Assembly: GCF_000008565.1 (NCBI RefSeq)
Contig: NC_001264.1
Location: forward strand, 187,418 to 219,417
Direction: 5' to 3'
Length of the DNA stretch: 32,000 bases
Origin: Deinococcus radiodurans R1 = ATCC 13939 = DSM 20539
GTDB lineage: Bacteria; Deinococcota; Deinococci; Deinococcales; Deinococcaceae
Position 1 is the first letter of the stretch; every line of letters begins with the position of its first letter. A program made the translations under genes and the position numbers. Positions 5,229 to 24,094 of the stretch are shown in pieces. Below the pieces are notes generated by a model. That model saw nothing but the letters and a program-made list of their open reading frames with translations. It was not told the DNA's origin and ran no database searches.

Positions 5229-5410
5229 ATGGTGCAGAGTAATCCCTGCGGCGGCCTGCGCGTGCGGGGGCTGACCCACTTCCCCTCCGCCCCAATGGGT
5301 GAGCGCGTCCTATTGCCTTGCCCCGGCTGTGACAGGCTGTCGAGCATGACTTTATCGGCGGCCCAGCGCCCTTCTTCTTGCCTTCTTTCCTTTCTTTCAG
5401 GAGTTCTGCT

Positions 5411-6627
<1,217 letters not shown>

Positions 6628-11133: not shown

Positions 11134-12705
11134 TCACTCTGGGCCGCAAAATTCCGGAATACAGCCGCTTTTGCCCTCCCAGTCGAGTGTTTGTGGGGTG
11201 GCACTCAGCCAGCGGGTCTGACCGTCCGCGCCCGTGATCAGGAGACCGGCGCGAACTTCGTATTTGCCCGCCGGGGCCAGGGTGCCGTCGCTGCGGCGGG
11301 CGTTCCAGCTCGCGTCGAGCCTTTCGCCTGCTCGGGCAGGGCAATGGTTGGCCCGGCTGCTGGCCTGCAACTGGCGGGCAAAGACCACTTCCCCGCTGCG
11401 GGCGTCCCGGACTGCCGCCACGAAGGTGCAGTTTTTCGCTCCCTCGACCGCCGCCACGTTCAGGGGCTGGAAGCGCAGGCCAAAGCTCACGCCCTGGGGC
11501 GACGACCAGCGACTCACCTGCAATTCGGCGTCTTGCGGCTGGCCCACAGGCGGCAGCAGCGGCGCGGGCTTGACCCAGATGCCAAGCCGCGCGAGCGAGA
11601 CGCCCTCCCTCTTCGCCAGCGCTTGCACGGCATCACGGGCGCGGGCGTCGGGCACGGTCAGCAGCAGTTTGGGGACGCCGTTTTGGACCGCGAACTTCAC
11701 GTCGTAGTCAATGCTCTGCACCGTTCGGGCCGGCGAAAAGACCTGCAACGCCTTTCGCATGGTGCTCGCCGGGGTGGCGGGCAAGACCGTGAACGTCACG
11801 TCCGGCGCCCGCACCGCGTTTTTGCCCTCCCCGTAGGCGGCTTGCAGGACGTACTTGCCGGGGGCCACCACCTGACCGCGCGTGTCGAGCAGGTCCCAGA
11901 AGACCGGCCAGCGGCCCTGAGCAACCAGTTCCCCGGTCTGACCCGGCGCAACGACGAGCGGTGGAGAGCCCACTTGCGCACAGCCCCCCGGCGCCGGAAC
12001 AGGCCGGACTTCGGTGCCTGTCGTGGCGTTCAGGACGCGATACTTGAAAGTGAAACAGCCCTGCGCGAGCGAAATGGGCTTGCGGCCAGTGTTCGTCAGC
12101 TTGAAACTCAGCGGCAAAATGTCGCCCTGCGCCACCTGCGCGGGCACGTTCAGCGCGGCGCGGTGCGGCTGGCTCAGGGTGCTGCGCGGCGGCAGGGTGG
12201 GCGACGCGGCGGCCACGAGGTCGAGCGCGTCCGCCGGGATGCCCTTTTGCCGGAAAAACTCGGCGGCCTGCTGACGGTAGGCGGCGTGCTGAAAGGCGAT
12301 GTGGAGCTTGTTGGCCTTCACGTCCACGTAAATCTCGCTCCAGCCGCGCAGGCCGCGCGCCAGAAACCGCGCCTGCGAGAGCTGCGCGGCGTTGTACTTC
12401 ACCGGCACGAAGCGGGGAGCCGTCAGGGTGTGCCCGGTCTGGTTCAGGCTGGCCCCGCGCTGCTTTTTGACCTCGGCCAGCACCTGCCGCCGCGCCGCCG
12501 GGTCCGTGCTGGTCACGGCGAGCGCCACGCCCCCACCTTCCACCCACAGCCCCGCGAAGGCCGGCGCCCGGAGCGCCAGCGCTGCGTCGTCATCGCCAGG
12601 GGTCACAGGAAGGGCACCGAAACTGGTTTTGACCGGCGGATTCGGGGCAGCCTGGGCGTGTGCCGGAAGCAGCAGCAGGGTGGAGAGCAGCAGAAGCTTA
12701 CGCAT
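11134..12705 (-). CDS. Secreted protein of unknown function with a two-fold internal duplication (alpha/beta module + Cys-pair Ig-like module, twice), 523 aa
   Basis: The ORF track gives 11134..13134; the extension is Arg/Pro/Cys-rich junk. ATG 12705 gives a classic signal peptide, MRKLLLLSTLLLLPAHAQA/AP. Repeated modules are GCFTFKYRVLNATTGTEV...GCAQ...APGKYVLQA and NCTFVAAVRDARSGEVV...HCPA...APAGKYEVRA. The six cysteines fall in three local pairs. Confidence 0.65.
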   Translation of the reverse strand: MRKLLLLSTLLLLPAHAQAAPNPPVKTSFGALPVTPGDDDAALALRAPAFAGLWVEGGGVALAVTSTDPAARRQVLAEVKKQRGASLNQTGHTLTAPRFVPVKYNAAQLSQARFLARGLRGWSEIYVDVKANKLHIAFQHAAYRQQAAEFFRQKGIPADALDLVAAASPTLPPRSTLSQPHRAALNVPAQVAQGDILPLSFKLTNTGRKPISLAQGCFTFKYRVLNATTGTEVRPVPAPGGCAQVGSPPLVVAPGQTGELVAQGRWPVFWDLLDTRGQVVAPGKYVLQAAYGEGKNAVRAPDVTFTVLPATPASTMRKALQVFSPARTVQSIDYDVKFAVQNGVPKLLLTVPDARARDAVQALAKREGVSLARLGIWVKPAPLLPPVGQPQDAELQVSRWSSPQGVSFGLRFQPLNVAAVEGAKNCTFVAAVRDARSGEVVFARQLQASSRANHCPARAGERLDASWNARRSDGTLAPAGKYEVRAGLLITGADGQTRWLSATPQTLDWEGKSGCIPEFCGPE

Positions 12706-12739: not shown

Positions 12740-13684
12740 TTAGAGCAGGCTGACGCGCTCGCGGCCTTGCGCCACCCGCGCCGCCGCCTCAGCGTGGTCG
12801 CACCACTCGATTTCCACCCCCGGCAGGCATTCGCGCAGCAGTTCGGGAAAAAGCGAGCTGACCCGCAGGGCGCCGCCCGTCGCCCGCAGGGGCAGGTCGC
12901 CCGCCCGCACCTGCACCCGCCGCCCGAGTTCGGCGAGCGACGTGGCGGCCTCACGCAGCAGTTCCAGCGCCGCCGCGTCGCCCCGGTCCGCTCCCCGGCC
13001 CACCGCCGGCGCGAGGCGGGCGAGGGCCGACGCTCCCGGCGCGGCGTACACGAAGGCGCGCAGGGTGTCCCAGTCGAGGCCCCCGGTGATGGCGGCGACT
13101 TCCTCGGCGAGTGGCCCCGTCGCTTCTCGCCCAAAATCGAGCGCGTCGGTCACGTGCCGCAGCGCCCCCCGGCCCAGGCTGGCCCCGGCCCCGTCGTCGC
13201 CGATGCGGTAGCCCCGGCCCCCGGCACGGAAGGTGTCGCCGCTCGCCGTCACGTGATAGGCGATGCTGCCGGTCCCGGCGTAGATCAGGATGCCTGCACC
13301 GGGCGCGAAGTGGGCGCGGTAGGCGAGGGCGAGGTCGCCTTCCACGCTCACCTGCTGCGGCGACAGGCCGAGGGCCGCAGCGAGGTGCGCCCGCGCCGTC
13401 TCCGCCTGGGGCGACCCCGCGCTCAGACCGGGCAGCCCGGCGTGAAGGCGCTCCGGCAACGCGGGCAGGGCGTCTCTTAGGCTTCTGAGCGCCGTCTCCC
13501 CCGCTGGCGTCCCGAGCAGGGCAGTCGTGAGGGGCGGAGCAGTGCCTGCCCCCACCCGTTGTGGGCCGCGCAGCAATACCCACTGCGTGCCGCTGCCCCC
13601 CGCGTCCAGACCGAGGGCGAGGGGCGGCAGTTTGGGAGCTGACGGGTGAGCGGGCGGCGTGTGGCAAGGCATGGGGGACAGCAT
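12740..13684 (-). CDS. BadF/BadG/BcrA/BcrD-type ATPase, N-acetylglucosamine-kinase-like (314 aa; alternative ATG at 13672)
   Basis: Actin-fold kinase motifs are present: LGLDAGGSGTQWVLL (phosphate 1), YAGTGSIAY, and GGRGYRIGDDGAGASLGRGALRHV. It ends 34 nt upstream of the secreted-protein gene on the same strand. Confidence 0.7.
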   Translation of the reverse strand: MLSPMPCHTPPAHPSAPKLPPLALGLDAGGSGTQWVLLRGPQRVGAGTAPPLTTALLGTPAGETALRSLRDALPALPERLHAGLPGLSAGSPQAETARAHLAAALGLSPQQVSVEGDLALAYRAHFAPGAGILIYAGTGSIAYHVTASGDTFRAGGRGYRIGDDGAGASLGRGALRHVTDALDFGREATGPLAEEVAAITGGLDWDTLRAFVYAAPGASALARLAPAVGRGADRGDAAALELLREAATSLAELGRRVQVRAGDLPLRATGGALRVSSLFPELLRECLPGVEIEWCDHAEAAARVAQGRERVSLL

Positions 13685-13738
13685 GACATTTTGCGTTTGG
13701 CACGGGGCTTTCCTCTAACGACAATTCAGCGAACTGTC

Positions 13739-14059
13739 ATGGCGCTGAGGCTGGGGAGCTCCATTGTCGGCGGTGGCGGACGCGGCATGGCGGCTTCGGG
13801 GATGCTCGCCCCCGGCCTGACCGAGCGCAGCATGGCCGCCACCGTCATTCCCGGCAGCCACAGCAAAAAGCCGCCGCTGCCCGCGTCCGAGAGTGCCCTC
13901 TACCACCCGTCGAACGCCCTGCGTGAACGCGGCGACTCCCCCGGCCACATGCACGACACGAGCGCCTACACCGAAACCGCCTCGCGCTCCGGGCTGCTGA
14001 AAGTGGCGGCGGGCATCGGACTGGCGGCGCTGGCGTGGCAGGTCTTGCAGCGGGAGTGA
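13739..14059 (+). CDS. Hypothetical small protein with C-terminal hydrophobic anchor (106 aa)
   Basis: This is the only plus-strand gene candidate in an otherwise 434-nt gap. Read codon by codon from ATG 13739, third positions are overwhelmingly G/C, as in the real genes here. The C-terminus GLLKVAAGIGLAALAWQVL is TM-like. It is followed directly by a strong terminator. No recognisable family. Confidence 0.4.
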   Translation: MALRLGSSIVGGGGRGMAASGMLAPGLTERSMAATVIPGSHSKKPPLPASESALYHPSNALRERGDSPGHMHDTSAYTETASRSGLLKVAAGIGLAALAWQVLQRE

Positions 14060-14068
14060 TGCGCGGCA

Positions 14069-14117
14069 AAAAAGAGAGGTGGGAAGACTCGCACGCTTCC
14101 CACCTCTCTTTTATTTA
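14069..14117. terminator. Bidirectional intrinsic terminator (ends the eight-gene minus-strand operon and the small plus-strand ORF)
   Basis: An A-tract (14068-14072) precedes a 14-bp perfect stem, AGAGAGGTGGGAAG (14073-14086) pairing with CTTCCCACCTCTCT (14096-14109), with a 9-nt loop. It is followed by TTTATTTATT. It sits between stop 14057-14059 (+) and stop 14119-14121 (-). Confidence 0.8.
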
Positions 14118-14118
14118 T

Positions 14119-14832
14119 TCAGCGCCAGCTTCTCAATTCCGGCGTCAGGTGACCTTCCTCGTTGAAGGAGTCGAGGCTCAGGCGTCCGCCACCGAAGGTA
14201 AAGCGCGTCAGGCTGCCGTTTTTGACCCGCCAGTTGAGTTTGAGGGCCGAGGCGTCGGGCGCGTCAAGGGCGAGTGCCACCGCCAGCCCGATCACGCCGC
14301 CGCTGGTAAAGAGGACGGCGGTGGTGCCCGCCGGGAGCCGCAGCACGTCGCCCAGGCCAGCGCGGACGCGCGCGCGGAAGTCGGCCCAGCCCTCGACCTC
14401 GGGGTGGGTCACGGTGCCCGCCTGCCACGCCGCCGCCAGCGCTTCGAGCATCCGCTGAAAGTGGCGGTTGCGCTCGGGCGAGTCGCGGTGCTCGCGGAAA
14501 GTCGTGGCAAGGGTGCCGAATTCGGCGTCCTGCTGAGCCAGCAGCGGGGCCAGTGTAGTCACCAGCCCGTCGCCGTCGAACTCGGAGAGGCGCGGGTCGA
14601 GGGTCGGCGCGGGCCAGCCCGGCTCATTCCCGGTCTGCCCTTCCCCGGCGAGTTCCGCTGTGCGCCGCTGCCGGACCAGCGAGCCGTGCAGGACGTGGGT
14701 GGGCCGCACCCCCTGCGCGGTGAGCGCCGCGCCCACCGCGCGGGCCTGCTGCTCACCGAGGGCCGAGAGGCGGTCGGTGGCCTTCTCGAAGGGCGTCGCC
14801 TGACCGTGGCGGACCAGAATCAGTTCACTCAT
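14119..14832 (-). CDS. Histidine-phosphatase (phosphoglycerate-mutase-like) superfamily protein, 237 aa
   Basis: The N-terminal catalytic motif is LILVRHGQATP (RHG). The C-terminal block VLFTSGGVIGLAVALAL aligns with the usual V-S-H-G-G-V-I block but has Ser in place of the second His. The start overlaps the kinase stop by 8 nt. Confidence 0.75.
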   Translation of the reverse strand: MSELILVRHGQATPFEKATDRLSALGEQQARAVGAALTAQGVRPTHVLHGSLVRQRRTAELAGEGQTGNEPGWPAPTLDPRLSEFDGDGLVTTLAPLLAQQDAEFGTLATTFREHRDSPERNRHFQRMLEALAAAWQAGTVTHPEVEGWADFRARVRAGLGDVLRLPAGTTAVLFTSGGVIGLAVALALDAPDASALKLNWRVKNGSLTRFTFGGGRLSLDSFNEEGHLTPELRSWR

Positions 14833-15985
14833 CGGTGGCCTGGGACGGAGGGGTCTGGGACGGTGCCGTCTGCAACTCGCCCTGCGCGCCGGGCGCCTGC
14901 GCGATGCGGCGCCACGCCTCCTCGATCAGCCACTGGGCCTGCCCGGCGAGCGGGGCGAAGCGCGGGTCCTGCGTCTGGCCGAGGCGGTAGCGGGCGAAAA
15001 TCTGCAGGACGATGACCGCCAGCTTGAAGTGCCCGAGGACCTCGTACCACGCCACGTTGCTCACGTCGCGGCCACTGCGCTCGGCGTAACGCTCAAGCAG
15101 CTCTTCGCGGGTGTAAAAGCCCTGGTCACTCGCCGCCGCGCCGATGCGGTTGGGCACGCCACCGGGCTGGTCGGGAATGGTCCAGTAGGTCAGCGTGAGG
15201 CCGAGGTCCACCAGCGGGTCGCCCACGGTGGTCATTTCCCAGTCGAGCAGCGCCGTGACTTTCGAAGGGTCCGCCGGGTCGAGCATCAGGTTGTCGAGCT
15301 TGAAATCGTTGTGGACCAGCGTGTGCGCCGTTTCGTCGGGCACGTTCGCTTCCAGCCAGGCGATGACGAGTTCGTCGCGCAGCTCGGCGGGCGGGGGCAG
15401 GTCGCCCGAGTCCTTGAGCAGCTCGCGCGCCCGGCGCCAGCGTCCGGCCCAGCCTTCCACCTGACGGCGGTTGAAGCCCTCCGGTTTGCCGATGCCGCGC
15501 AGCCCCGCCGCGTCGATGTCCACCGCGTGCAGATCGGCCAGTGTGTCGGCCAGCGCCTGCGACATCTGCCGGGGGGCGTCGGGGAGTGCGGCGTACTCGG
15601 CAGGCAACTTGGTACGGACCACCGTGCCGCGTCGCCGCTCCATCAGATAAAAGGGAGAGCCGAGCACCGCCGGGTCCTCGACGAGCAGCGCCGGAGCAGG
15701 GGCCACCGCCAGCACCGGGTGAATCTTTTCAAGCAGGTGGTACTCGCGCGCCATGTCGTGCGCGCCCTTGGCGACGGGGCCGAGCGGTGCGCGGCGCAGC
15801 ACATATTCCTGGTCGCCGGCCCGCAACAGGTAGGTCAGGTTGGAAAACCCGCCGGGAAACTGCTCGACTTCGAGGGCATCCACGTCGCCGGGCACCTGAC
15901 CGCGCATCGCGTCCCGAAGGCGGTCGAGCGGCAATTCCTCGCCGGGGCGCACCGGGGCGGTATCGGGCCGCCCGCCCGTGGTCAC
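14825..15985 (-). CDS. APH-fold phosphotransferase of the type fused to ACAD10/ACAD11 (LvaA-like candidate 4-hydroxyacyl-CoA kinase), 386 aa
   Basis: The GTG start at 15985 overlaps the upstream stop (GTGA). Motifs are FPGGFSNLTYLL...EYVLRRAP (nucleotide-binding lobe), the catalytic loop LVHNDFKLDNLML, and the metal-binding DWEMTTVGDPLVDLG. Confidence 0.75.
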   Translation of the reverse strand: MTTGGRPDTAPVRPGEELPLDRLRDAMRGQVPGDVDALEVEQFPGGFSNLTYLLRAGDQEYVLRRAPLGPVAKGAHDMAREYHLLEKIHPVLAVAPAPALLVEDPAVLGSPFYLMERRRGTVVRTKLPAEYAALPDAPRQMSQALADTLADLHAVDIDAAGLRGIGKPEGFNRRQVEGWAGRWRRARELLKDSGDLPPPAELRDELVIAWLEANVPDETAHTLVHNDFKLDNLMLDPADPSKVTALLDWEMTTVGDPLVDLGLTLTYWTIPDQPGGVPNRIGAAASDQGFYTREELLERYAERSGRDVSNVAWYEVLGHFKLAVIVLQIFARYRLGQTQDPRFAPLAGQAQWLIEEAWRRIAQAPGAQGELQTAPSQTPPSQATDE

Positions 15986-16818
15986 GGGTGGCCCTCGGTG
16001 CGGGGGGCCTGACCGGCGGCGGCTTCGGCGGCAGCCTGGGGTGCCTGAGCAGCATGTGCCTCGACGAGCGCCATCGCCTTGGTCCGCAGGTGGCGCATCT
16101 TACTGATCCACACGTCGTAATTTTCCGCCTTGTTGCGGAAGGATTTGAGGGTGGTGTCGTGGGTGGTGATCAGGAAGCCGTCTGCCCGCAGCACCTCCAG
16201 CGCCTTCTCGACGAGTTCGTCGGTGGTGATGGCGGTCTGCTGCAAAATCGGCGCGTTCTGCACCATCGGGGTCCAGACGCCCTCGGGACACAGGCAGGTG
16301 ACCTTAATGCCCCGGTCGCCGTAGGTCACCGCCAGCCACTCGGCAAAGGCGAGCGCGGCGTGCTTCGTCACCGCGTAGGGCGCCGAGTGCAGTTCGGTGA
16401 GCAGGCCCGCCGCCGAGGCGGTGTTCAGGAAATGGCCCTCGCCGCGCTCCAGAAAGTGCGGCAGCAGGTGCCGGGCGGCCCAGACGTGGCTCATCACGTT
16501 GATGCGGTGCACGAGGTCCCAGACCTTGTCGGGCGTTTCCGGCCCCTCGCCCTGCGCGACGCCCGCATTCGAGCAAAACAGGTCGATGCGGCCTTCCTGC
16601 GCCAGCACGTTCTCGATGATGGCCTGCACGCCCTCCTCACGGCTGATGTCGGCGGGGATGAAACGCGCACCGATCTCCTGCGCCTTCTGCGCCCCGACTT
16701 CGGCATTGCGGTCAGAGGTGATGACAGTGGCGCCTTCCTGCACGAAGCGGGTGGCGAGCGCGAGACCGATACCCGAAGCGCCGCCGGTCACGACGACGAT
16801 TTTGTTCTGAAATTCCAT
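15982..16818 (-). CDS. Short-chain dehydrogenase/reductase (278 aa)
   Basis: The ORF track gives 15982..16965; ATG 16818 is preceded by GGAG. Motifs are KIVVVTGGASGIGLA (TGxxxGxG), SNAG, and SAPYAVTKHA (YxxxK). Confidence 0.85.
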   Translation of the reverse strand: MEFQNKIVVVTGGASGIGLALATRFVQEGATVITSDRNAEVGAQKAQEIGARFIPADISREEGVQAIIENVLAQEGRIDLFCSNAGVAQGEGPETPDKVWDLVHRINVMSHVWAARHLLPHFLERGEGHFLNTASAAGLLTELHSAPYAVTKHAALAFAEWLAVTYGDRGIKVTCLCPEGVWTPMVQNAPILQQTAITTDELVEKALEVLRADGFLITTHDTTLKSFRNKAENYDVWISKMRHLRTKAMALVEAHAAQAPQAAAEAAAGQAPRTEGHP

Positions 16819-16906
16819 GGGGACTCCGTGGTGCGGGGTGGGGCGCGGCGGACTTTTCTCCGGCCCGGCGCCCCTGGGAGTTGTTGGTTCAGTGGAGGTG
16901 ACTGGC

Positions 16907-18150
<1,244 letters not shown>

Positions 18151-18154
<4 letters not shown>

Positions 18155-18558
18155 GCGGGTTCCTCCAGGGGGGAAACAGAAACTGGGGTCAGGGGGCGCA
18201 GATCGGCGCTCGGGCCGCCGACGCCCAGCAGATCTATGCCCAGCAGAAAGTCGCGGCACAGCCCGCCGCCTTCGCGCCGCAGCACCAGCCCCAGCCCCTG
18301 CACCTCGGCCTGCACGGCTTCGGCGCGGGCAAAAGCCTCGGGCGAGCGGTCATGTGCCAGCTCCTCGGCGAGGCGGTTGTCTTCCTCGAACAGCGCCCGG
18401 TACGTCTCGTAAGCGGGCAGCGGCTCGAAGGCGCAGCGAAAGGCGAAGGGACGCAGTTCCAGCACGATCAGGTGCCCGAGCGGCAGCCCCGCGCCGCTGA
18501 GCAGCAGCACGCTTTCGCCGGGGCGCCAGGGGGCGGGGACGGCCTGTTCGGGGGTCAC
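18151..18558 (-). CDS. Hypothetical protein, 135 aa, translationally coupled on both sides
   Basis: The GTG start at 18558 overlaps the thioesterase stop (GTGA), and the stop overlaps the ACAD ATG (ATGA). Amino-acid composition looks normal (not Arg/Pro/Gly junk) and includes an amphipathic helical stretch, [20 protein letters not shown]. No family recognised. Confidence 0.6.
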
Positions 18559-19049
18559 GAGCCCTCCGTCTCGGTTGTTGGGCCGTTTGCCGCCGAAGTG
18601 GGCACATCGGCGAGCACGATGGTTCCGAGCGCCGTCGCCACCAGCTTTTCGTCGCCGCCCTTGACCGCATAGATGTCGCAGCGGGTCACGGCCTGCCGCT
18701 TGGTGGCGCTCACCACGCTGGCGCGCGAGACGAGTTCCTCGCCTACGCCGGGGCGCACGAAATTGATCTTGAACTCGCTGGTGAGCACGTTGGGTCCCAG
18801 CGCCAGCGCGCCGATGAAGGTCAGCGAGATATCGGCCATGGCGGACATCAGCCCGCCGTGCGCGAAGCCGTGGTGCTGGCGCAGGTCCTCGCGCAGCGGC
18901 ACGCGCAAGGTGGCCTGCGAGGGGGTGATGTCGGTGAACTGGGCACCGATCAGGGTGGAAAAGGACTGCGCGGCGATCACCTGATTGGCGAAGGCCAGAA
19001 CTTCGGCGGGAGACTGTGTTGGCTCAGACTGGGGAGGCTGTTGGGTCAT
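18555..19049 (-). CDS. PaaI/4HBT-type hotdog-fold thioesterase (164 aa)
   Basis: The motif LRVPLREDLRQHHGFAHGGLMSAMADISLTFIGA is typical of PaaI-family thioesterases. The size is right for a single hotdog domain. Confidence 0.8.
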   Translation of the reverse strand: MTQQPPQSEPTQSPAEVLAFANQVIAAQSFSTLIGAQFTDITPSQATLRVPLREDLRQHHGFAHGGLMSAMADISLTFIGALALGPNVLTSEFKINFVRPGVGEELVSRASVVSATKRQAVTRCDIYAVKGGDEKLVATALGTIVLADVPTSAANGPTTETEGS

Positions 19050-19081
19050 GAAGGGCCGCTCCTGTGGCTGGTGGCGGGGGA

Positions 19082-19543
19082 TTACAGGTAGACGCGGAAG
19101 ACCGTTTCCGCGATGCAGGCGGGCTTGGACGCGCCCTCGATTTCCACCGTGTTGAGCACCGTCATCTGCAAAAAGCTCTCGCCTTGCTCCACGCTCTGCA
19201 AGGTCGCGTGGCTGCGCAGGCGGCTGCCGACGCGCACCGGGGTGGGAAAACGCACCCGGTTGAGGCCGTAGTTGAGCGTGACTTTCGCGCCGGTGATCTC
19301 GGGCATACCGCCGCCGTTCAGAAAGTCACCGGCGAGCATCGAGAGGCTCATGAAGCCGTGGGCGACAGTAGTGCCGAAGGGGCCCTGGGCGGCTTTTTCG
19401 GGGTCCACGTGAATGAACTGGTGGTCGCCCGTCGCGTCGGCGAAAAGGTTGATGCGCTCCTGGGTGACTTCGACCCAGTCCGACACGGCGAGTTCCTGCC
19501 CGACGAGTGCCGGGAGGTCCTGGGGCGTGAGCGAGCGGCTCAT
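19082..19543 (-). CDS. MaoC-like (R)-specific enoyl-CoA hydratase/dehydratase (153 aa)
   Basis: This is the C-terminal part of track ORF 19082..20386. ATG 19543 overlaps the upstream SDR stop (ATGA). The hydratase-2 motif is FADATGDHQFIHVDPEKAAQGPFGTTVAHGF. Confidence 0.85.
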   Translation of the reverse strand: MSRSLTPQDLPALVGQELAVSDWVEVTQERINLFADATGDHQFIHVDPEKAAQGPFGTTVAHGFMSLSMLAGDFLNGGGMPEITGAKVTLNYGLNRVRFPTPVRVGSRLRSHATLQSVEQGESFLQMTVLNTVEIEGASKPACIAETVFRVYL

Positions 19544-20316
19544 ATCGCGGTGATGCCGCCGTCCACGGCGATGTTCTGGCCGGTCATGTAGGCGCTGGCG
19601 TCGCTGGAAAGCAGCACGGCGAGACCCTTGAGGTCCTGGTCGGTGCCCAGGCGGCCCATCGGCGTGTGGCTCATGATGGCTTGCTCGGCGGCGGCGAGGG
19701 TGCCGCGCGTCATCTTGGTGGGAAAGTAGCCGGGGCAAATCGAGTTGACGGTGATGCCCTTGGGCGCCAGCTCGGAGGCCAGGGCGCGGGTAAAGTTCAC
19801 CACGGCGCCCTTGGAGGTGTTGTAAGCCATGGTGGGCATCATCTGCGGCGAGTTGCCCTTGAGGCCCGCCACGCTCGCCACGTTGATGATGCGGCCCTTG
19901 CCGGCGGGCAACATGCAGCGGTTGAGCACGCTCTGGGTGAGCAGGAACGTTCCGTTGACGTTGACGTTCATCACCTTCATCCAGGCGTCGAAGGGATGCT
20001 CGGCGGTCGGTGCGCCCCAGGTGGCCCCGGCGTTGTTGATGAGGATGTCGATGGGCCCGACTTCCTGATGAATTTGCGCAATGAGCGGGTCGATGCTCTC
20101 GAAGTTGCCGAGGTCGTTGGCGTAGACGTGGGCCTTGACGCCCAGCCCTTCGAGGTGCGCCTTCGCCTCGTCGAGTTCGTTTTGCTTGCGGGCGGTGAGC
20201 ACCACGGTGGCGCCGTACTCGCCGAGCGCTTCGGCCATCTGCAGGCCGAGGCCACGCGAGCCACCGGTGATGAGCGCCACTTTGCCGGACAGGTCGAACA
20301 GTTCTTTCAGGGCCAT
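19540..20316 (-). CDS. FabG-like short-chain dehydrogenase/reductase (258 aa), first gene of the operon
   Basis: GGAGGA lies 4-5 nt upstream of ATG 20316. Motifs are GKVALITGGSRGLG, NNAG, and AYNTSKGAV (YxxxK). Confidence 0.85.
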   Translation of the reverse strand: MALKELFDLSGKVALITGGSRGLGLQMAEALGEYGATVVLTARKQNELDEAKAHLEGLGVKAHVYANDLGNFESIDPLIAQIHQEVGPIDILINNAGATWGAPTAEHPFDAWMKVMNVNVNGTFLLTQSVLNRCMLPAGKGRIINVASVAGLKGNSPQMMPTMAYNTSKGAVVNFTRALASELAPKGITVNSICPGYFPTKMTRGTLAAAEQAIMSHTPMGRLGTDQDLKGLAVLLSSDASAYMTGQNIAVDGGITAI

Positions 20317-20381: not shown

Positions 20382-20411
20382 AGCATACGGGGAAATTTAC
20401 GTGCACGTCAA
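20382..20411 (-). promoter_or_regulatory. Putative promoter of the eight-gene operon with an overlapping near-palindromic operator
   Basis: The minus strand reads TTGACG (20411-20406), an 18-nt spacer, then TATGCT (20387-20382), about 65 nt upstream of ATG 20316. The 16-bp near-palindrome TTGACGTGCACGTAAA (20411-20396; central ACGTGCACGT is a perfect palindrome) overlaps the -35 box and spacer. This is a motif-only call. Confidence 0.3.
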
Positions 20412-20456
20412 TTCTGGACGTGGAGGGATATTTTTTGGAGCCTCTGGCGACACAGC

Positions 20457-21464: not shown

Positions 21465-22853
21465 TCAGAACTTGGCGAAGCGGGTGAGCTTGAACGGCGT
21501 CTCGGGTGTGCCGCCGATGCGGTCCAGTTGCGCCTGCGTCACCACGAGGTCGTTCCCGACCTTCGCCAGCGTGGCGGGAAAGCGCAGGCCGTTCAGAGGC
21601 TCCTGCGCGACCAGTTGGCCGCTGCCGTAGTCGGCGCTGAGGCTGACCTTGGCGACGACCTGGTCCTTGTTGCGGGCGACGTAGAGGGTGCGCCCGTCGA
21701 GCAGGAGGCCGTCGCCGTTGACGAGGCCGTCCATGACCTTTTTGACCGCCTTGGTCTTCAGGTCGATGCGCCACAACTCGCCCGTGTTGAGCTGCACGGC
21801 GAGCAGGTACTTGCCGTCGGGCGTGGCAGCGATGCCGTTGAGGTTGACGCCGGGGCCGTACTTGATGGGCGTGCCGGCGAGGTCGAGCCAGGCCGTCAGC
21901 TTCAGCGCCTTGTCCACGCGGAAAATGACTGGGCGCGAGGAATCGGTGACATAGAAGTTGCCGTCGGGCGCCAGCACGAGGTCGTTGATGTAGGGACGCG
22001 GCGACTTGGGGGTCTCCAGCACTGCCAGCGTCATGCCGTCGGGCGTGAGGATGCTGACCGTTCCCTGGGCACCGCCCGCAATCCACAGTCGGCCCTGGGG
22101 GTCCACCTTGAGGCCGAGCGCGACCTGACGGCCATAGGCGCCGCCTTCCTGAAACTTGGTCACGGCGCCGCTCTGGGCGTTGATGGCGTAGATGGTGCCG
22201 TTCTGGGCGCTGCCAGTGTAGATCAAGCCTTTCTTCGCGTCGTAGGCGACGCCTTCGGGGTGGTCCACCGGGCCGGGCAGCGCGTAGTCGCGCACGCTCA
22301 GGCCGTCGCGCACGATGACGCCGCAGCGCTCGCGGGCACCGGACATGCCCGCCGGGTCGGTCTTGTAGTCGTCGGGGTTGGCGTGGATGACCAGACTGCG
22401 GTTCAGGATGCCGTTTTCGCCGGTCAGGCTGATTTTGGTGCTGGTAAAGCTCGCTTTGCCCACACCGTCGGCGCCCACGCTGAGCATCGGGGTGTCGCCG
22501 CCGTGCCCGTGTTTGTTGTCGGTCTGGGGCGTATCGTGGTTGCGGCTCATGCTGGGGTCAAAGTGCCCGCCCGCCGCGCCGAAGGGCACCACTTTGTTGA
22601 CCGCCGGGTCCACGCCGGGAGTGCAGCGCCCGAACTCGTGGACGTGCATCCCGTGCATCCCGGGCGTCAGGCCGCGCACGTCCACCGTGACCTGCACGCC
22701 CGCGCCCTGCTGCACGAAGCGGGCACTGCCCACGACCTGCCCGGCACCGTCACGCAGGGCGGCGGTGGCACTCAGGGGAGTCGCCGGCTGCGCGCCGCCC
22801 GCGCTCGCCAGGCCCAGGGTCAACAGCCCGAGCAGCGCCGTTTTACGCATCAT
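21465..22853 (-). CDS. sodC: Secreted Cu/Zn superoxide dismutase domain fused to a C-terminal beta-propeller (SMP-30/gluconolactonase/NHL-like) domain, 462 aa
   Basis: ATG 22853 overlaps the upstream stop (ATGA). The signal peptide is [22 protein letters not shown]. All SodC ligands are visible: HVHEFGRC (Cu His pair plus disulfide Cys), GGHFDP (bridging His), [16 protein letters not shown] (Zn His/His/Asp), LVIHANPDD (Cu His), and ARERCG (Arg plus Cys). Residues from about 190 to 462 show repeated blade-like motifs ([32 protein letters not shown]). Confidence 0.85.
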
Positions 22854-24094
22854 TTCTGGCCTCCCACGTACTGCACGCGGTAAATCACGCCGCTCTGGTC
22901 GTCGGTGAACAGCAGGCTGCCGTCGGTGTAGACCGCCAGCCCCGCCACGCGCCCGAACTGCTTCCACTCGCCGCCTTCCTGATAGACAAAGCCGGTCACG
23001 AAAGGCTCGATCTTCTCGGGTTTGTTCTGCGCGTCAAACACCACGCGGGCGACTTCATAGCCGCTCGGCTCGTTGCGGTTCCACGAGCCCCGGAAGGTCA
23101 CGAAGGCGTCATTGCGGAACTCGGCGGGAAACTGTGTGCCGGTGTAGAACTTCAGCGCAATCGCGGCGGCGTGCGCGGTGTAGTTCAGGGTGCTCGGCTC
23201 GGTCGTCGCGCAGTACTCGGCCTTGGTGATCTTGCCGGGGATGTTGGCGACATTCACGAAGGGATCGGGGTTTTTGGCGCCGTAGCAAAAGGGCCAGCCG
23301 TAGTTCTTGCCGCGCTTGATGACGTTCAGTTCCTCAGGCGGAATATTGTCGCCGTGCCAGTCGCTGCCCTGGTCCATGCCGTAGAAGGTCTTGGTGACGG
23401 GGTGCCAGCCGAAGCCGATGGTGTGGCGCAGGCCCCGGGCGTACACCTCGCGCACCTGACCGTCGGGGCGAATGCGCAGGATGGTGGCTTCCTCGGGGTT
23501 CTGGGTGGGGGCGTCATTGTTGGTCGCGCCGAAGGAGGCGTAGAGGTAGCCGTCGGGGCCCCAGCCGAGCTGCCGGGCGGGGTGCTGCCCGGCGTCGGGG
23601 AAGTTGTCGGCAAAGACGCGGGGCACGCTGAGAGTGCCGTCCCTGGCGATGTCCATGACCCATATGGTCTTTTCGCCCACCGCGTAGAGCTTGCCCTGGC
23701 GGGTATCGATGCCGTGCACCAGCTTGAGCTGGTCGGCCACCCGGCGGCGCTCGGTGGCGTCGATGGTGCCGTCGCCGTTGACGTCCTTGAGGTACCAGAT
23801 GTCGCCGTTCTGGCGGCGCGACAGGTAAATGCCGCCGTCGGGCATCACGTGCAACATGCGGGCGTTGCCGAGTTCGGTTGCCATCACGCTCACCTTGAAA
23901 CCGGCGGGCACCTTGAGGCGGGCGAGCTTGTCAGGCGTGAACTGCTGGGGCGTGGGCTCGTTGCGGGTCACGGTGGCCGTGGCGGGCGGCTCGGGCGCGG
24001 GCAGCGGGCGGTCTATCGGCGCGGGCGGGGGCGTCTGGGCAGCGGCAAGGGCGCACAGGGCTACGGTCAGGGGAGCAAGGAAAGTTTTTCTCAT
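22850..24094 (-). CDS. Secreted PQQ-dependent (soluble glucose/sorbosone dehydrogenase, YliI-like) beta-propeller sugar dehydrogenase, 414 aa
   Basis: The ORF track gives 22850..24181; ATG 24094 is preceded by GGAGG. The signal peptide is MRKTFLAPLTVALCALAAAQ. Family blocks are GWGPDGYLYASFGATNN and GLRHTIGFGWHPVTKTFYGMDQGSDWHGDNIPPEELNVIKRGKNYGWPFCYG. Confidence 0.8.
   Translation of the reverse strand: MRKTFLAPLTVALCALAAAQTPPPAPIDRPLPAPEPPATATVTRNEPTPQQFTPDKLARLKVPAGFKVSVMATELGNARMLHVMPDGGIYLSRRQNGDIWYLKDVNGDGTIDATERRRVADQLKLVHGIDTRQGKLYAVGEKTIWVMDIARDGTLSVPRVFADNFPDAGQHPARQLGWGPDGYLYASFGATNNDAPTQNPEEATILRIRPDGQVREVYARGLRHTIGFGWHPVTKTFYGMDQGSDWHGDNIPPEELNVIKRGKNYGWPFCYGAKNPDPFVNVANIPGKITKAEYCATTEPSTLNYTAHAAAIALKFYTGTQFPAEFRNDAFVTFRGSWNRNEPSGYEVARVVFDAQNKPEKIEPFVTGFVYQEGGEWKQFGRVAGLAVYTDGSLLFTDDQSGVIYRVQYVGGQK

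Follow-up and report, generated by a model that had tools for sequence, protein, structure and literature searches.

The eight-gene operon DR_A0200-DR_A0193 on the minus strand of chromosome II of Deinococcus radiodurans R1 probably encodes a split bacterial form of the ACAD10/ACAD11/Lva route, which would bring gamma-substituted fatty acids (4-hydroxy and perhaps 4-oxo) into beta-oxidation. The genes, numbered here g1 (DR_A0200) to g8 (DR_A0193), run in a row from position 20316 to position 14119 of a 32,000-nucleotide stretch of contig NC_001264.1 (positions 187,418 to 219,417), hereafter the window, whose coordinates are used throughout. On the basis of sequence comparisons we give this reading a probability of about 0.7. 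The chemistry at its centre, carried out by a kinase and an acyl-coenzyme A (CoA) dehydrogenase (ACAD), is very likely to be that of ACAD10/11 and Lva. A preliminary description of this DNA had put forward the same split kinase and dehydrogenase chemistry, and each part of that proposal that can be tested in silico gave a positive result. Taken as a whole, the comparisons support the view of the operon as a gene-rich new bacterial example of the known LvaA/LvaC-ACAD10/11 pathway family, not as a new kind of system.

The dehydrogenase and the kinase

The comparison of g5 covered all solved structures. The 415-residue g5 reaches 478 bits with the dehydrogenase domain of human ACAD11 (2wbi; 59% identity over 399 aligned residues), 475 bits with mouse ACAD11 and 448 bits with the M. 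abscessus orthologue, whereas the best ordinary ACAD, from outside this clade, scores 136 bits. The clade has been defined by a small set of residues, in mouse ACAD11 numbering the catalytic D753 that replaces Glu, the HCMR motif (H634, R637) and the upstream R626 (Rashan et al., PMC12440821). These four residues lie beside the flavin adenine dinucleotide (FAD), are required for activity, are shared with LvaC and are specific to ACAD10/11/LvaC (PMC12440821). Once a one-residue offset of the PDB chain is allowed for, R260, H268, R271 and D387 of g5 align with R626, H634, R637 and D753, respectively. The phosphate-site stretch QGR260LGPGRIHH268CMR271 is identical to that of ACAD11, and D387, within LRLADGPD, takes the place of the canonical ACAD glutamate. 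Nine bacterial sequences, drawn from several phyla, have the same four residues without exception. Since g5 combines ACAD11-clade scores with all four clade residues, it is not an ordinary FadE, and its earlier grouping with ACAD10/11 holds. It is predicted to be an ACAD10/ACAD11/LvaC-type enzyme that eliminates phosphate from 4-phosphoacyl-CoA.

The kinase g7 matches the Pfam family APH (1.7e-49). Its closest solved structure is the 'ACAD10 kinase' of C. thermarum (Caldalkalibacillus), 9o56, at 323 bits and 46% identity, followed by the kinase domain of mouse ACAD11 (140 bits) and by 3dxp (136 bits). Residues R64, E81, D227, K229, N232, D248 and E250 of g7 correspond to all seven sites at which mutation reduces the activity of 9o56, and its catalytic set comprises the beta-3 Arg, the alpha-C Glu, HxDxK, the Asn and DWE. 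The protein motifs quoted in the preliminary description, DWE among them, were all found in the translations, and the scores agree with its statement that the kinase is of the type that animals fuse to this ACAD. We predict that g7, as an ACAD10/11-type kinase of the APH fold, acts on 4-hydroxyacyl-CoA.

Linkage of kinase and dehydrogenase across genomes

Scanning species-representative genomes with an ACAD alignment gave at least 80 loci, spread over many phyla, whose ACADs are 65-79% identical to g5. These loci were searched by tblastn with the eight window proteins; three added Deinococcus loci (L081-L083) bring the total to 83. Linkage was counted over the 55 loci with flanks of 5 kb or more on each side. 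Of these, 26 (47%) have an APH kinase no farther than 5 kb from the ACAD, with linked pairs in Acidobacteriota, Planctomycetota, Verrucomicrobiota, Bacillota, Pseudomonadota and Deinococcota. The order ACAD-SDR-kinase (SDR, short-chain dehydrogenase/reductase) recurs in each of the four other Deinococcus loci, and a His-phosphatase gene follows the kinase in three of them (L081-L083); the fourth, in a Deinococcus metagenome-assembled genome (L001), consists of g5-g6-g7 only. Linkage of kinase and ACAD, which the preliminary description had asked to see in related genomes, thus holds in all the Deinococcus loci and in about half of the 55 diverse genomes.

The linked kinases fall into two branches. 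The g7-type branch, 39-63% identical to g7, is found in Acidobacteriota, Planctomycetota, Verrucomicrobiota, Bacillus, a Rhodobacterales metagenome-assembled genome and Deinococcus. Kinases of the LvaA-type branch, about 30-34% identical to g7, stand directly upstream of the ACAD in Burkholderiales-type loci and, in Marinobacter, downstream of it, after an SDR. The g7-type kinase occurs in 15 loci, and of these 7 have a g8-type His-phosphatase adjoining it, 8 a MaoC gene (usually directly after the ACAD), 4 a g6-type SDR directly after the ACAD and 5 a g1-like SDR.

As to the two SDR types, g6 is the one most tightly linked to the ACAD. Genes of its type stand directly 3' of the ACAD in L001, L003, L004, L005, L009, L021, L046, L059, L082 and L083, including three loci (L003, L004 and L009) with no kinase nearby. 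SDRs of the g1 type (54-58% identical) occur directly beside an ACAD10/11-type ACAD, or separated from it by an LvaA-type kinase, in L053, L069 and L070. Those of the Casimicrobiaceae (L053 and L069, the latter confirmed by Pfam) are compact SDR-kinase-ACAD arrays with the LvaA-type kinase in the middle, and in Paraburkholderia fungorum (L070) the g1-type SDR is directly upstream of the ACAD, with no kinase match at the locus.

These counts, together with the structural comparisons, bear on the notion that the genes form an ordinary beta-oxidation or fatty-acid cluster in which g7, a phosphotransferase for aminoglycosides or antibiotics, would be unrelated to its neighbours and the gene called 'phosphoglycerate mutase-like' would be a passenger. 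The names currently in use (acyl-CoA dehydrogenase, hypothetical protein, phosphoglycerate mutase-like protein, gluconate 5-dehydrogenase) would suit such a cluster, and a search of NCBIfam found no equivalog for g5 and gave g7 weak APH(3')/thiamine-kinase matches, far under the cut-offs. Nevertheless, g5 stands more than 340 bits apart from ordinary ACADs and also differs from them in the Asp in place of the catalytic Glu and in the HCMR motif, and g7 scores 323 and 140 bits with ACAD10/11 kinases against 31 bits with APH(3'). Adjacency of kinase and ACAD in 47% of the loci, moreover, cannot be due to chance, since a genome has by estimate a few APH genes only. An ordinary cluster with a stray phosphotransferase is hardly credible and is already contradicted by these sequence tests, in favour of the split ACAD10/11-type pathway.

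Gene arrays in other Deinococcus species give a closer view of the operon. In D. metallilatus, D. maricopensis and D. peraridilitoris the order is 600-residue FadE, alpha/beta hydrolase, g1, g2, (g3), (small open reading frame, ORF), g5, g6, g7, g8, (esterase), with variable members in brackets. Abutting genes in these arrays overlap, mostly by 4 nt, and the D. peraridilitoris array runs on upstream, on the same strand, into FadB and thiolase genes. The conserved core, g5-g8, is often extended by g1-g2; the lineage-specific genes are g3 and g4. As a separate observation, D. metallilatus carries a cassette of MazE/Fic/MazE genes and a small ORF between g5 and g6 (L081, 11271-12494). This junction corresponds to the 88-nt gap of D. 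radiodurans (16819-16906), the only gap of any size in its operon, and in D. maricopensis and D. peraridilitoris the genes overlap there.

Accessory enzymes and proposed pathway

The remaining enzymes of the operon are of families that would fit the steps before and after the kinase and the ACAD. The g2 product matches Pfam MaoC_dehydratas (1.6e-27, 96 bits) and scores 171 bits with Rv0130 of M. tuberculosis (PDB 2c2i), which we take to be an (R)-specific enoyl-CoA hydratase; g2 is predicted to be a MaoC-type enzyme of the same specificity. A PaaI-like thioesterase of the hotdog fold is predicted for g3 (Pfam 4HBT, 9e-11; NCBIfam TIGR00369 over the cut-off), an accessory gene found in D. radiodurans and D. 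metallilatus only among the 83 loci.

Both SDRs match adh_short in Pfam, g1 at 1e-58 and g6 at 1e-42. For g1, NCBIfam adds PRK08213 (414 bits; cut-off 279), and its best solved relatives are gluconate-5-dehydrogenase and FabG enzymes, while the best solved relative of g6 is the (3R)-hydroxyacyl-CoA dehydrogenase of Candida MFE-2 (2et6, 116 bits). After strand beta-2, g1 has Arg-Lys (...LTARK...) and g6 has Asp (...VITSD...). In SDRs, Asp at this place is the signature of nicotinamide adenine dinucleotide, NAD(H), and Arg-Lys that of its phosphate, NADP(H), so g6 would be of the NAD(H) type and g1 of the NADP(H) type.

A pathway can be proposed from these assignments. Judging from homologues characterised by others, g7 would phosphorylate the 4-hydroxyl group of a 4-hydroxyacyl-CoA; R260, H268 and R271 of g5 would bind the resulting 4-phosphoacyl-CoA, and elimination of phosphate by means of D387 and FAD would then yield a 2-enoyl-CoA, without net change in redox state. 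The other roles are suggested by context. The hydratase g2 would convert the 2-enoyl-CoA into (3R)-hydroxyacyl-CoA, and one of the SDRs (g1 or g6) would oxidise it to 3-oxoacyl-CoA, for thiolysis by enzymes encoded elsewhere. The other SDR would interconvert 4-oxoacyl-CoA and 4-hydroxyacyl-CoA, the role of LvaD. In turn, g8 may serve as a regulator or safety valve whose target is the phosphorylated intermediate or the kinase, and g3 may free CoA from dead-end thioesters. The chain length and the origin of the substrate are read from context only.

Evidence against the pathway and alternative readings

Several observations weigh against the pathway as proposed, and they are gathered here together with the alternatives that they raise. 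The first concerns the linkage itself, given that in 29 of the 55 well-flanked loci the ACAD has no kinase nearby. In P. putida (L043) its neighbours are a divergent LysR gene and a CoA-transferase only. More broadly, Pseudomonas ACADs 66-70% identical to g5 have no kinase within 10 kb in L022, L023, L025, L036-L038, L043, L047, L050, L056, L074, L077 and L080. In these bacteria either the kinase is encoded elsewhere or the ACAD is used independently of a kinase.

A second point is the lack of enzymes for the two ends of the pathway. The 32-kb window contains no acyl-CoA ligase (synthetase) and no thiolase (the preliminary description had noted the lack of both in the operon), and no regulator or transporter gene stands beside the operon; pathway entry and exit would therefore depend on unlinked genes. 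A narrower reading would make the operon a dedicated system for levulinate (4-oxopentanoate) or gamma-valerolactone, the direct functional orthologue of Pseudomonas lva, rather than a general pathway for 4-hydroxy fatty acids. In its favour, kinase, His-phosphatase, ACAD and SDR make up the core here as they do in the P. citronellolis cluster that levulinate induces, there are two SDRs that would suit the reduction of 4-oxoacyl-CoA, and the alpha/beta-hydrolase and esterase genes that flank other Deinococcus clusters could open lactones. A dedicated levulinate system would nonetheless be without an LvaE-type CoA ligase, an LvaR-type regulator and a transporter. Furthermore, g7 is of the ACAD10 type, at only about 30-33% identity to the LvaA-type kinases of Burkholderiales and Marinobacter, and the D. 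peraridilitoris cluster is joined to a long-chain FadE/FadB/thiolase set, which points to longer chains; chain length itself is not something that the sequence reveals. We consider a levulinate-specific operon unlikely and retain the broader 4-hydroxyacyl-CoA pathway.

The division of labour between the two SDRs is a further point. Either g6 is the 4-oxoacyl-CoA reductase and g1 the 3-hydroxyacyl-CoA dehydrogenase, or the reverse. The position of g6 after the ACAD parallels that of lvaD after lvaC, and g1-type SDRs form SDR-kinase-ACAD triads in Betaproteobacteria. Because each type is the sole SDR in minimal kinase-ACAD operons elsewhere, and because g6 is nearest to a (3R)-hydroxyacyl-CoA dehydrogenase, the roles could be swapped. 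The preliminary description had cast g6 as LvaD-like and g1 as the FabG-like dehydrogenase of the next step; this split of roles is not established.

The substrate of the kinase is also at issue. According to a 2026 preprint, the ACAD10 kinase and prokaryotic homologues phosphorylate 1-O-alkylglycerols in vitro (PMC13596139). Chimyl alcohol was phosphorylated in vitro by the 9o56 kinase and other prokaryotic homologues, some of which need acetyl-CoA for full activity, and the phosphatase (HAD) domain of ACAD10 dephosphorylated an ether-lipid phosphate (PMC13596139), an activity that g8 would parallel. On this evidence the targets of g7 and g8 might be glycerol-based lipids (1-O-alkyl- or acylglycerols and their phosphates), with the acyl-CoA enzymes serving a different or additional lipid remodelling. 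However, the genomic partner of the kinase across phyla is an ACAD with an active site made for phosphorylated acyl-CoA, and the other genes linked to it (hydratase, SDR, thioesterase) encode enzymes for CoA thioesters. Neither the operon nor the window holds a glycerolipid gene, g8 is not homologous to the HAD domain, and the preprint itself calls the relation between the two activities unclear (PMC13596139). A glycerolipid function is improbable, and we keep it under consideration because g7 is closest to the bacterial enzyme crystallised in that study; the 4-hydroxyacyl-CoA is preferred as its substrate.

Finally, g8 is an atypical phosphatase. It belongs to His_Phos_1 of Pfam (6.9e-21, 75 bits; cut-off 21.7) and keeps the RHG-type nucleophile motif, LVR8H9GQ (R8, H9), as well as R54 and E84. 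Ser177, however (FTSGG, against the usual SHGG), aligns with the His of the 'CH' motif of PGAM5, which we take to be the second catalytic His, H230. Serine occupies this position in all 12 orthologues from ACAD neighbourhoods that were aligned, from five phyla (L002, L005, L010, L015, L029, L032, L046, L059, L067 and L081-L083), and a His near the C-terminus, His228 in an 'HL' motif, is conserved in g8 and in the 12. As the second catalytic His is absent, g8 may be inefficient as a phosphatase; its sequence points either to a variant active site or to a regulatory pseudo-phosphatase.

An atypical phosphatase has a counterpart in ACAD10, whose HAD domain, with a DxD motif that is incomplete, has next to no activity on the intermediate but does restrain the kinase (PMC11342911). 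The parallel between g8 and this domain, drawn in the preliminary description, stands as an analogy but not as homology, given the histidine-phosphatase fold of g8 as opposed to HAD and the replaced second His. By that analogy one might suppose, tentatively and with more doubt than confidence, that animals and bacteria independently attached a catalytically atypical phosphatase-type protein to a 4-hydroxyacyl-CoA kinase, and that g8 is a dedicated proofreader or brake limiting the build-up of 4-phosphoacyl-CoA. If so, g8 would not be a general phosphatase and, with the MaoC protein and the NAD-type SDR, the operon would be a self-contained R-specific entry branch to beta-oxidation, mirroring peroxisomal ACAD11 and MFE-2.

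Organisation of the operon

The positions of the genes and of the associated signals are collected in Table 1. The lengths and the order of the ORFs equal those of the published annotation of DR_A0193-DR_A0200 (PMC8149714, Table 3), and the g5 product has 100% identity to a D. radiodurans protein.

Table 1. Genes and candidate signals of the DR_A0200-DR_A0193 operon, in window coordinates.
Feature	Position	Strand	Description
g1 (DR_A0200)	19540-20316	minus	SDR, 258 aa
g2 (DR_A0199)	19082-19543	minus	MaoC, 153 aa
g3 (DR_A0198)	18555-19049	minus	4HBT, 164 aa
g4 (DR_A0197)	18151-18558	minus	135-aa ORF without family
g5 (DR_A0196)	16907-18154	minus	ACAD (N/M/C domains), 415 aa
g6 (DR_A0195)	15982-16818	minus	SDR, 278 aa
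g7 (DR_A0194)	14825-15985	minus	APH kinase, 386 aa
g8 (DR_A0193)	14119-14832	minus	His_Phos_1, 237 aa
Candidate sigma-70-type promoter	20382-20411	minus	TTGACG-18-TATGCT, about 65 nt 5' of the g1 start; consensus match only
Palindrome AATTGACGTGCACGTAAATT	20394-20413	none	20 bp, near-perfect, covers the -35 hexamer; sequence observation in this genome
Bidirectional intrinsic terminator	14068-14112	none	hairpin of about 17 bp at 14070-14112, A-run on one side, T-run on the other

Five pairs of neighbouring genes overlap at start and stop, by ATGA at 19540-19543 (g1/g2) and 18151-18154 (g4/g5), by GTGA at 18555-18558 (g3/g4) and 15982-15985 (g6/g7), and by ATGAGTGA at 14825-14832 (g7/g8). There are two intergenic gaps, of 32 nt (19050-19081) and 88 nt (16819-16906). 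All eight ORFs show a coding-type GC pattern, with GC contents of 0.82-0.90 at third (GC3) and 0.43-0.53 at second (GC2) codon positions in a genome of 67% GC, and a GGAG-like Shine-Dalgarno sequence precedes most of them. Every coordinate given earlier for genes, overlaps and gaps agrees with the sequence, and Pfam assigns each of the domain names that had been used; the one protein without a family, g4, had been given no function. Transcription of DR_A0200-DR_A0193 as a single unit is the best explanation of this arrangement.

The region scanned for promoters (7.2 kb) holds two sigma-70-like sites, compared with 0.4 expected from shuffles, and one of them lies upstream of g1, where a promoter had been suggested. 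The palindrome that covers its -35 hexamer may be a candidate operator for a regulator. Matches to AATTGACGTGCACGTAAATT with up to 3 mismatches number 5 (0.42 expected), and a relative, TTCACGTCCACGTAA, is found at 12317-12331 within the DR_A0190 ORF. An operator of the radiation-response type (RDRM, radiation/desiccation response motif) was considered for this promoter and rejected, as the palindrome at 20394-20413 does not fit the RDRM consensus.

At the other end of the operon, the terminator hairpin has a folding free energy of -36.1 kcal/mol (z = -6.06), and none of 200 shuffles folds as well. It is shared with the convergent ORF 13646-14059 (DR_A0192). The terminator is bidirectional and strong, as described before, although its stem had been slightly undercounted at 14 bp. 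A consensus terminator scanner made no call at 14070-14112, probably owing to an interrupted stem top or to loop size. Searches of the operon region against Rfam for riboswitches or leader RNAs yielded sub-threshold chance matches only. One of these, to c4-a1b1, lies at 17856-17911 (minus strand) inside the coding sequence of the ACAD, with 25.8 bits against a gathering threshold of 46.7 (E = 0.0028), and is most likely due to chance.

The small protein g4

The ORF of g4 overlaps both of its neighbours (GTGA and ATGA), has a coding-type GC pattern and is preceded by GGAGGG. Searches of Pfam and NCBIfam placed it in no family, and a word-index search returned 3 close relatives only, whereas an exhaustive profile search of 1.84 billion proteins retrieved 32 cluster representatives at E<=1e-3. 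By sequence, g4 is a member of a real, undescribed family of small proteins of about 100-130 residues without a Pfam domain, whose members (P0124-P0154) share the pattern C-x-F-x-P-x-P-A-F ... R-x-L-F-E-E-[DE] ... L-G-L ... F-L-L-x-I-D-G-x-x-A-x-F-R. Its topology is predicted to comprise a sheet of three strands, a helical hairpin and two more strands. A model of g4 built with AlphaFold2 (mean predicted local distance difference test score, pLDDT, 69.5) found no fold match in the PDB.

None of the 80 non-Deinococcus ACAD loci contains a member of the family, the gene neighbourhoods of three distant members are unrelated, and the 117-residue ORF at the g4 position in D. peraridilitoris has no detectable homology to g4. 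We considered g4 as an equivalent of LvaB, which is of similar size, but could not demonstrate such an equivalence; in the loci examined outside Deinococcus the family has no link to kinase or ACAD, and g4 does not look like a general partner of the kinase.

Genomic context and significance

In a study of gamma-irradiated recA strains, a 35-kb region (187,425-222,947) was deleted in all five sequenced isolates, obtained by selection for gamma-resistance above baseline and viable in rich medium (PMC8149714). The window (about 187.4-219.4 kb of chromosome II) nearly coincides with this region. As a consequence, everything within it, including the operon, UvrA2, NadE and SodC, is dispensable in rich medium. 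A literature search on the expression of DR_A0193-0200 returned the deletion table only (PMC8149714).

The preliminary description had favoured 4-hydroxy acids from lipid peroxidation as substrates, in keeping with an oxidative-stress specialist. We find no support for such a special link, because the module is widespread in soil bacteria and the region is deleted in viable recA isolates. A role specific to radiation-resistant organisms was likewise rejected, given the presence of the module in Acidobacteriota, Planctomycetota, Pseudomonadota and Bacillota and the dispensability of the region.

Two other genes of the window have unusual features. DR_A0202 (21465-22967, minus strand, 500 aa) combines a Cu/Zn superoxide dismutase domain with a C-terminal beta-propeller of the SMP-30/gluconolactonase/NHL type and has an N-terminal signal-like segment, an unusual architecture for a SodC. 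DR_A0186 (5378-6367, plus strand, 329 aa), annotated as 'cytochrome P450, putative', matches the P450 profile at residues 281-313 only (profile 326-359 of 462), and looks truncated or highly divergent.

Together, our results re-annotate eight genes whose names say little ('hypothetical', 'phosphoglycerate mutase-like', 'gluconate 5-dehydrogenase', 'nodulation protein N-like') and join them in a single coherent predicted pathway. They also indicate a wide bacterial distribution of the 4-hydroxyacyl-CoA kinase/ACAD module, whose workings have recently been clarified in mammals. In bacteria it takes the form of an operon of variable content, in which a His-phosphatase-like protein, an SDR of either type and an R-hydratase recur as partners. 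The operon by itself reveals no new chemistry; what it offers is a set of soluble, separately encoded bacterial proteins on which the unusual redox-neutral mechanism of the ACAD, and what the phosphatase-type partner does, can be studied.

Comparison with known systems

With mammalian ACAD10 and ACAD11 the operon shares an ACAD with the four clade residues and 59% identity to the dehydrogenase domain of ACAD11, a kinase homologous to their N-terminal domain, with the HxDxK...N and DWE motifs, and the predicted chemistry, namely ATP-dependent 4-O-phosphorylation followed by FAD-dependent elimination of phosphate to a 2-enoyl-CoA. As in ACAD10, a phosphatase-type component with an incomplete catalytic motif accompanies the kinase. 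Unlike in the mammalian proteins, the kinase and the ACAD of Deinococcus are separate polypeptides with an SDR gene between theirs, the phosphatase-like partner has the histidine-phosphatase fold and not that of HAD, and an R-hydratase, two SDRs, a thioesterase and a small protein are encoded in addition.

The lva operon of P. putida encodes the kinase LvaA with the 12-kDa LvaB, the ACAD LvaC, the SDR LvaD and the ligase LvaE, and processes levulinate via 4-hydroxyvaleryl-CoA and 4-phosphovaleryl-CoA, as outlined in accounts of the work of Rand et al. 2017 (PMC6692424; PMC11342911). Here too kinase, ACAD10/11-type ACAD and SDR are encoded in one operon. The resemblance is closer for the levulinate-induced cluster of P. 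citronellolis LA18T, which has homologues of LvaA, LvaC and LvaD and a histidine phosphatase beside the kinase, and is without lvaB (PMC6692424); this is the same four-part core as g5-g8. In contrast to lva, the Deinococcus operon has no LvaE CoA ligase, LvaR regulator or transporters, its kinase falls in the ACAD10-like branch and no LvaB equivalent can be demonstrated; it adds a MaoC hydratase, a second SDR and a thioesterase, and the gene order differs.

A split pair of the same two families is also found in B. pseudomallei, whose kinase and ACAD (orthologues of LvaA and LvaC) can replace the ACAD10 domains in vitro (PMC11342911). In Paraburkholderia (L011, L019, L020 and L026) the ACAD has 68-69% identity to g5, the kinase stands directly upstream of it, and a MaoC gene is nearby. 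These Burkholderiales systems differ from that of Deinococcus in having a kinase of the other sub-branch and a cluster of two or three genes, compared with an operon of eight. Lastly, g2 and one of the SDRs would give a pair for R-specific hydration and dehydrogenation like that of peroxisomal MFE-2 (D-specific hydratase and (3R)-hydroxyacyl-CoA dehydrogenase). The best solved relative of g6 is indeed the dehydrogenase domain of the Candida protein, at a modest 116 bits, although in Deinococcus the two activities would reside in separate proteins.

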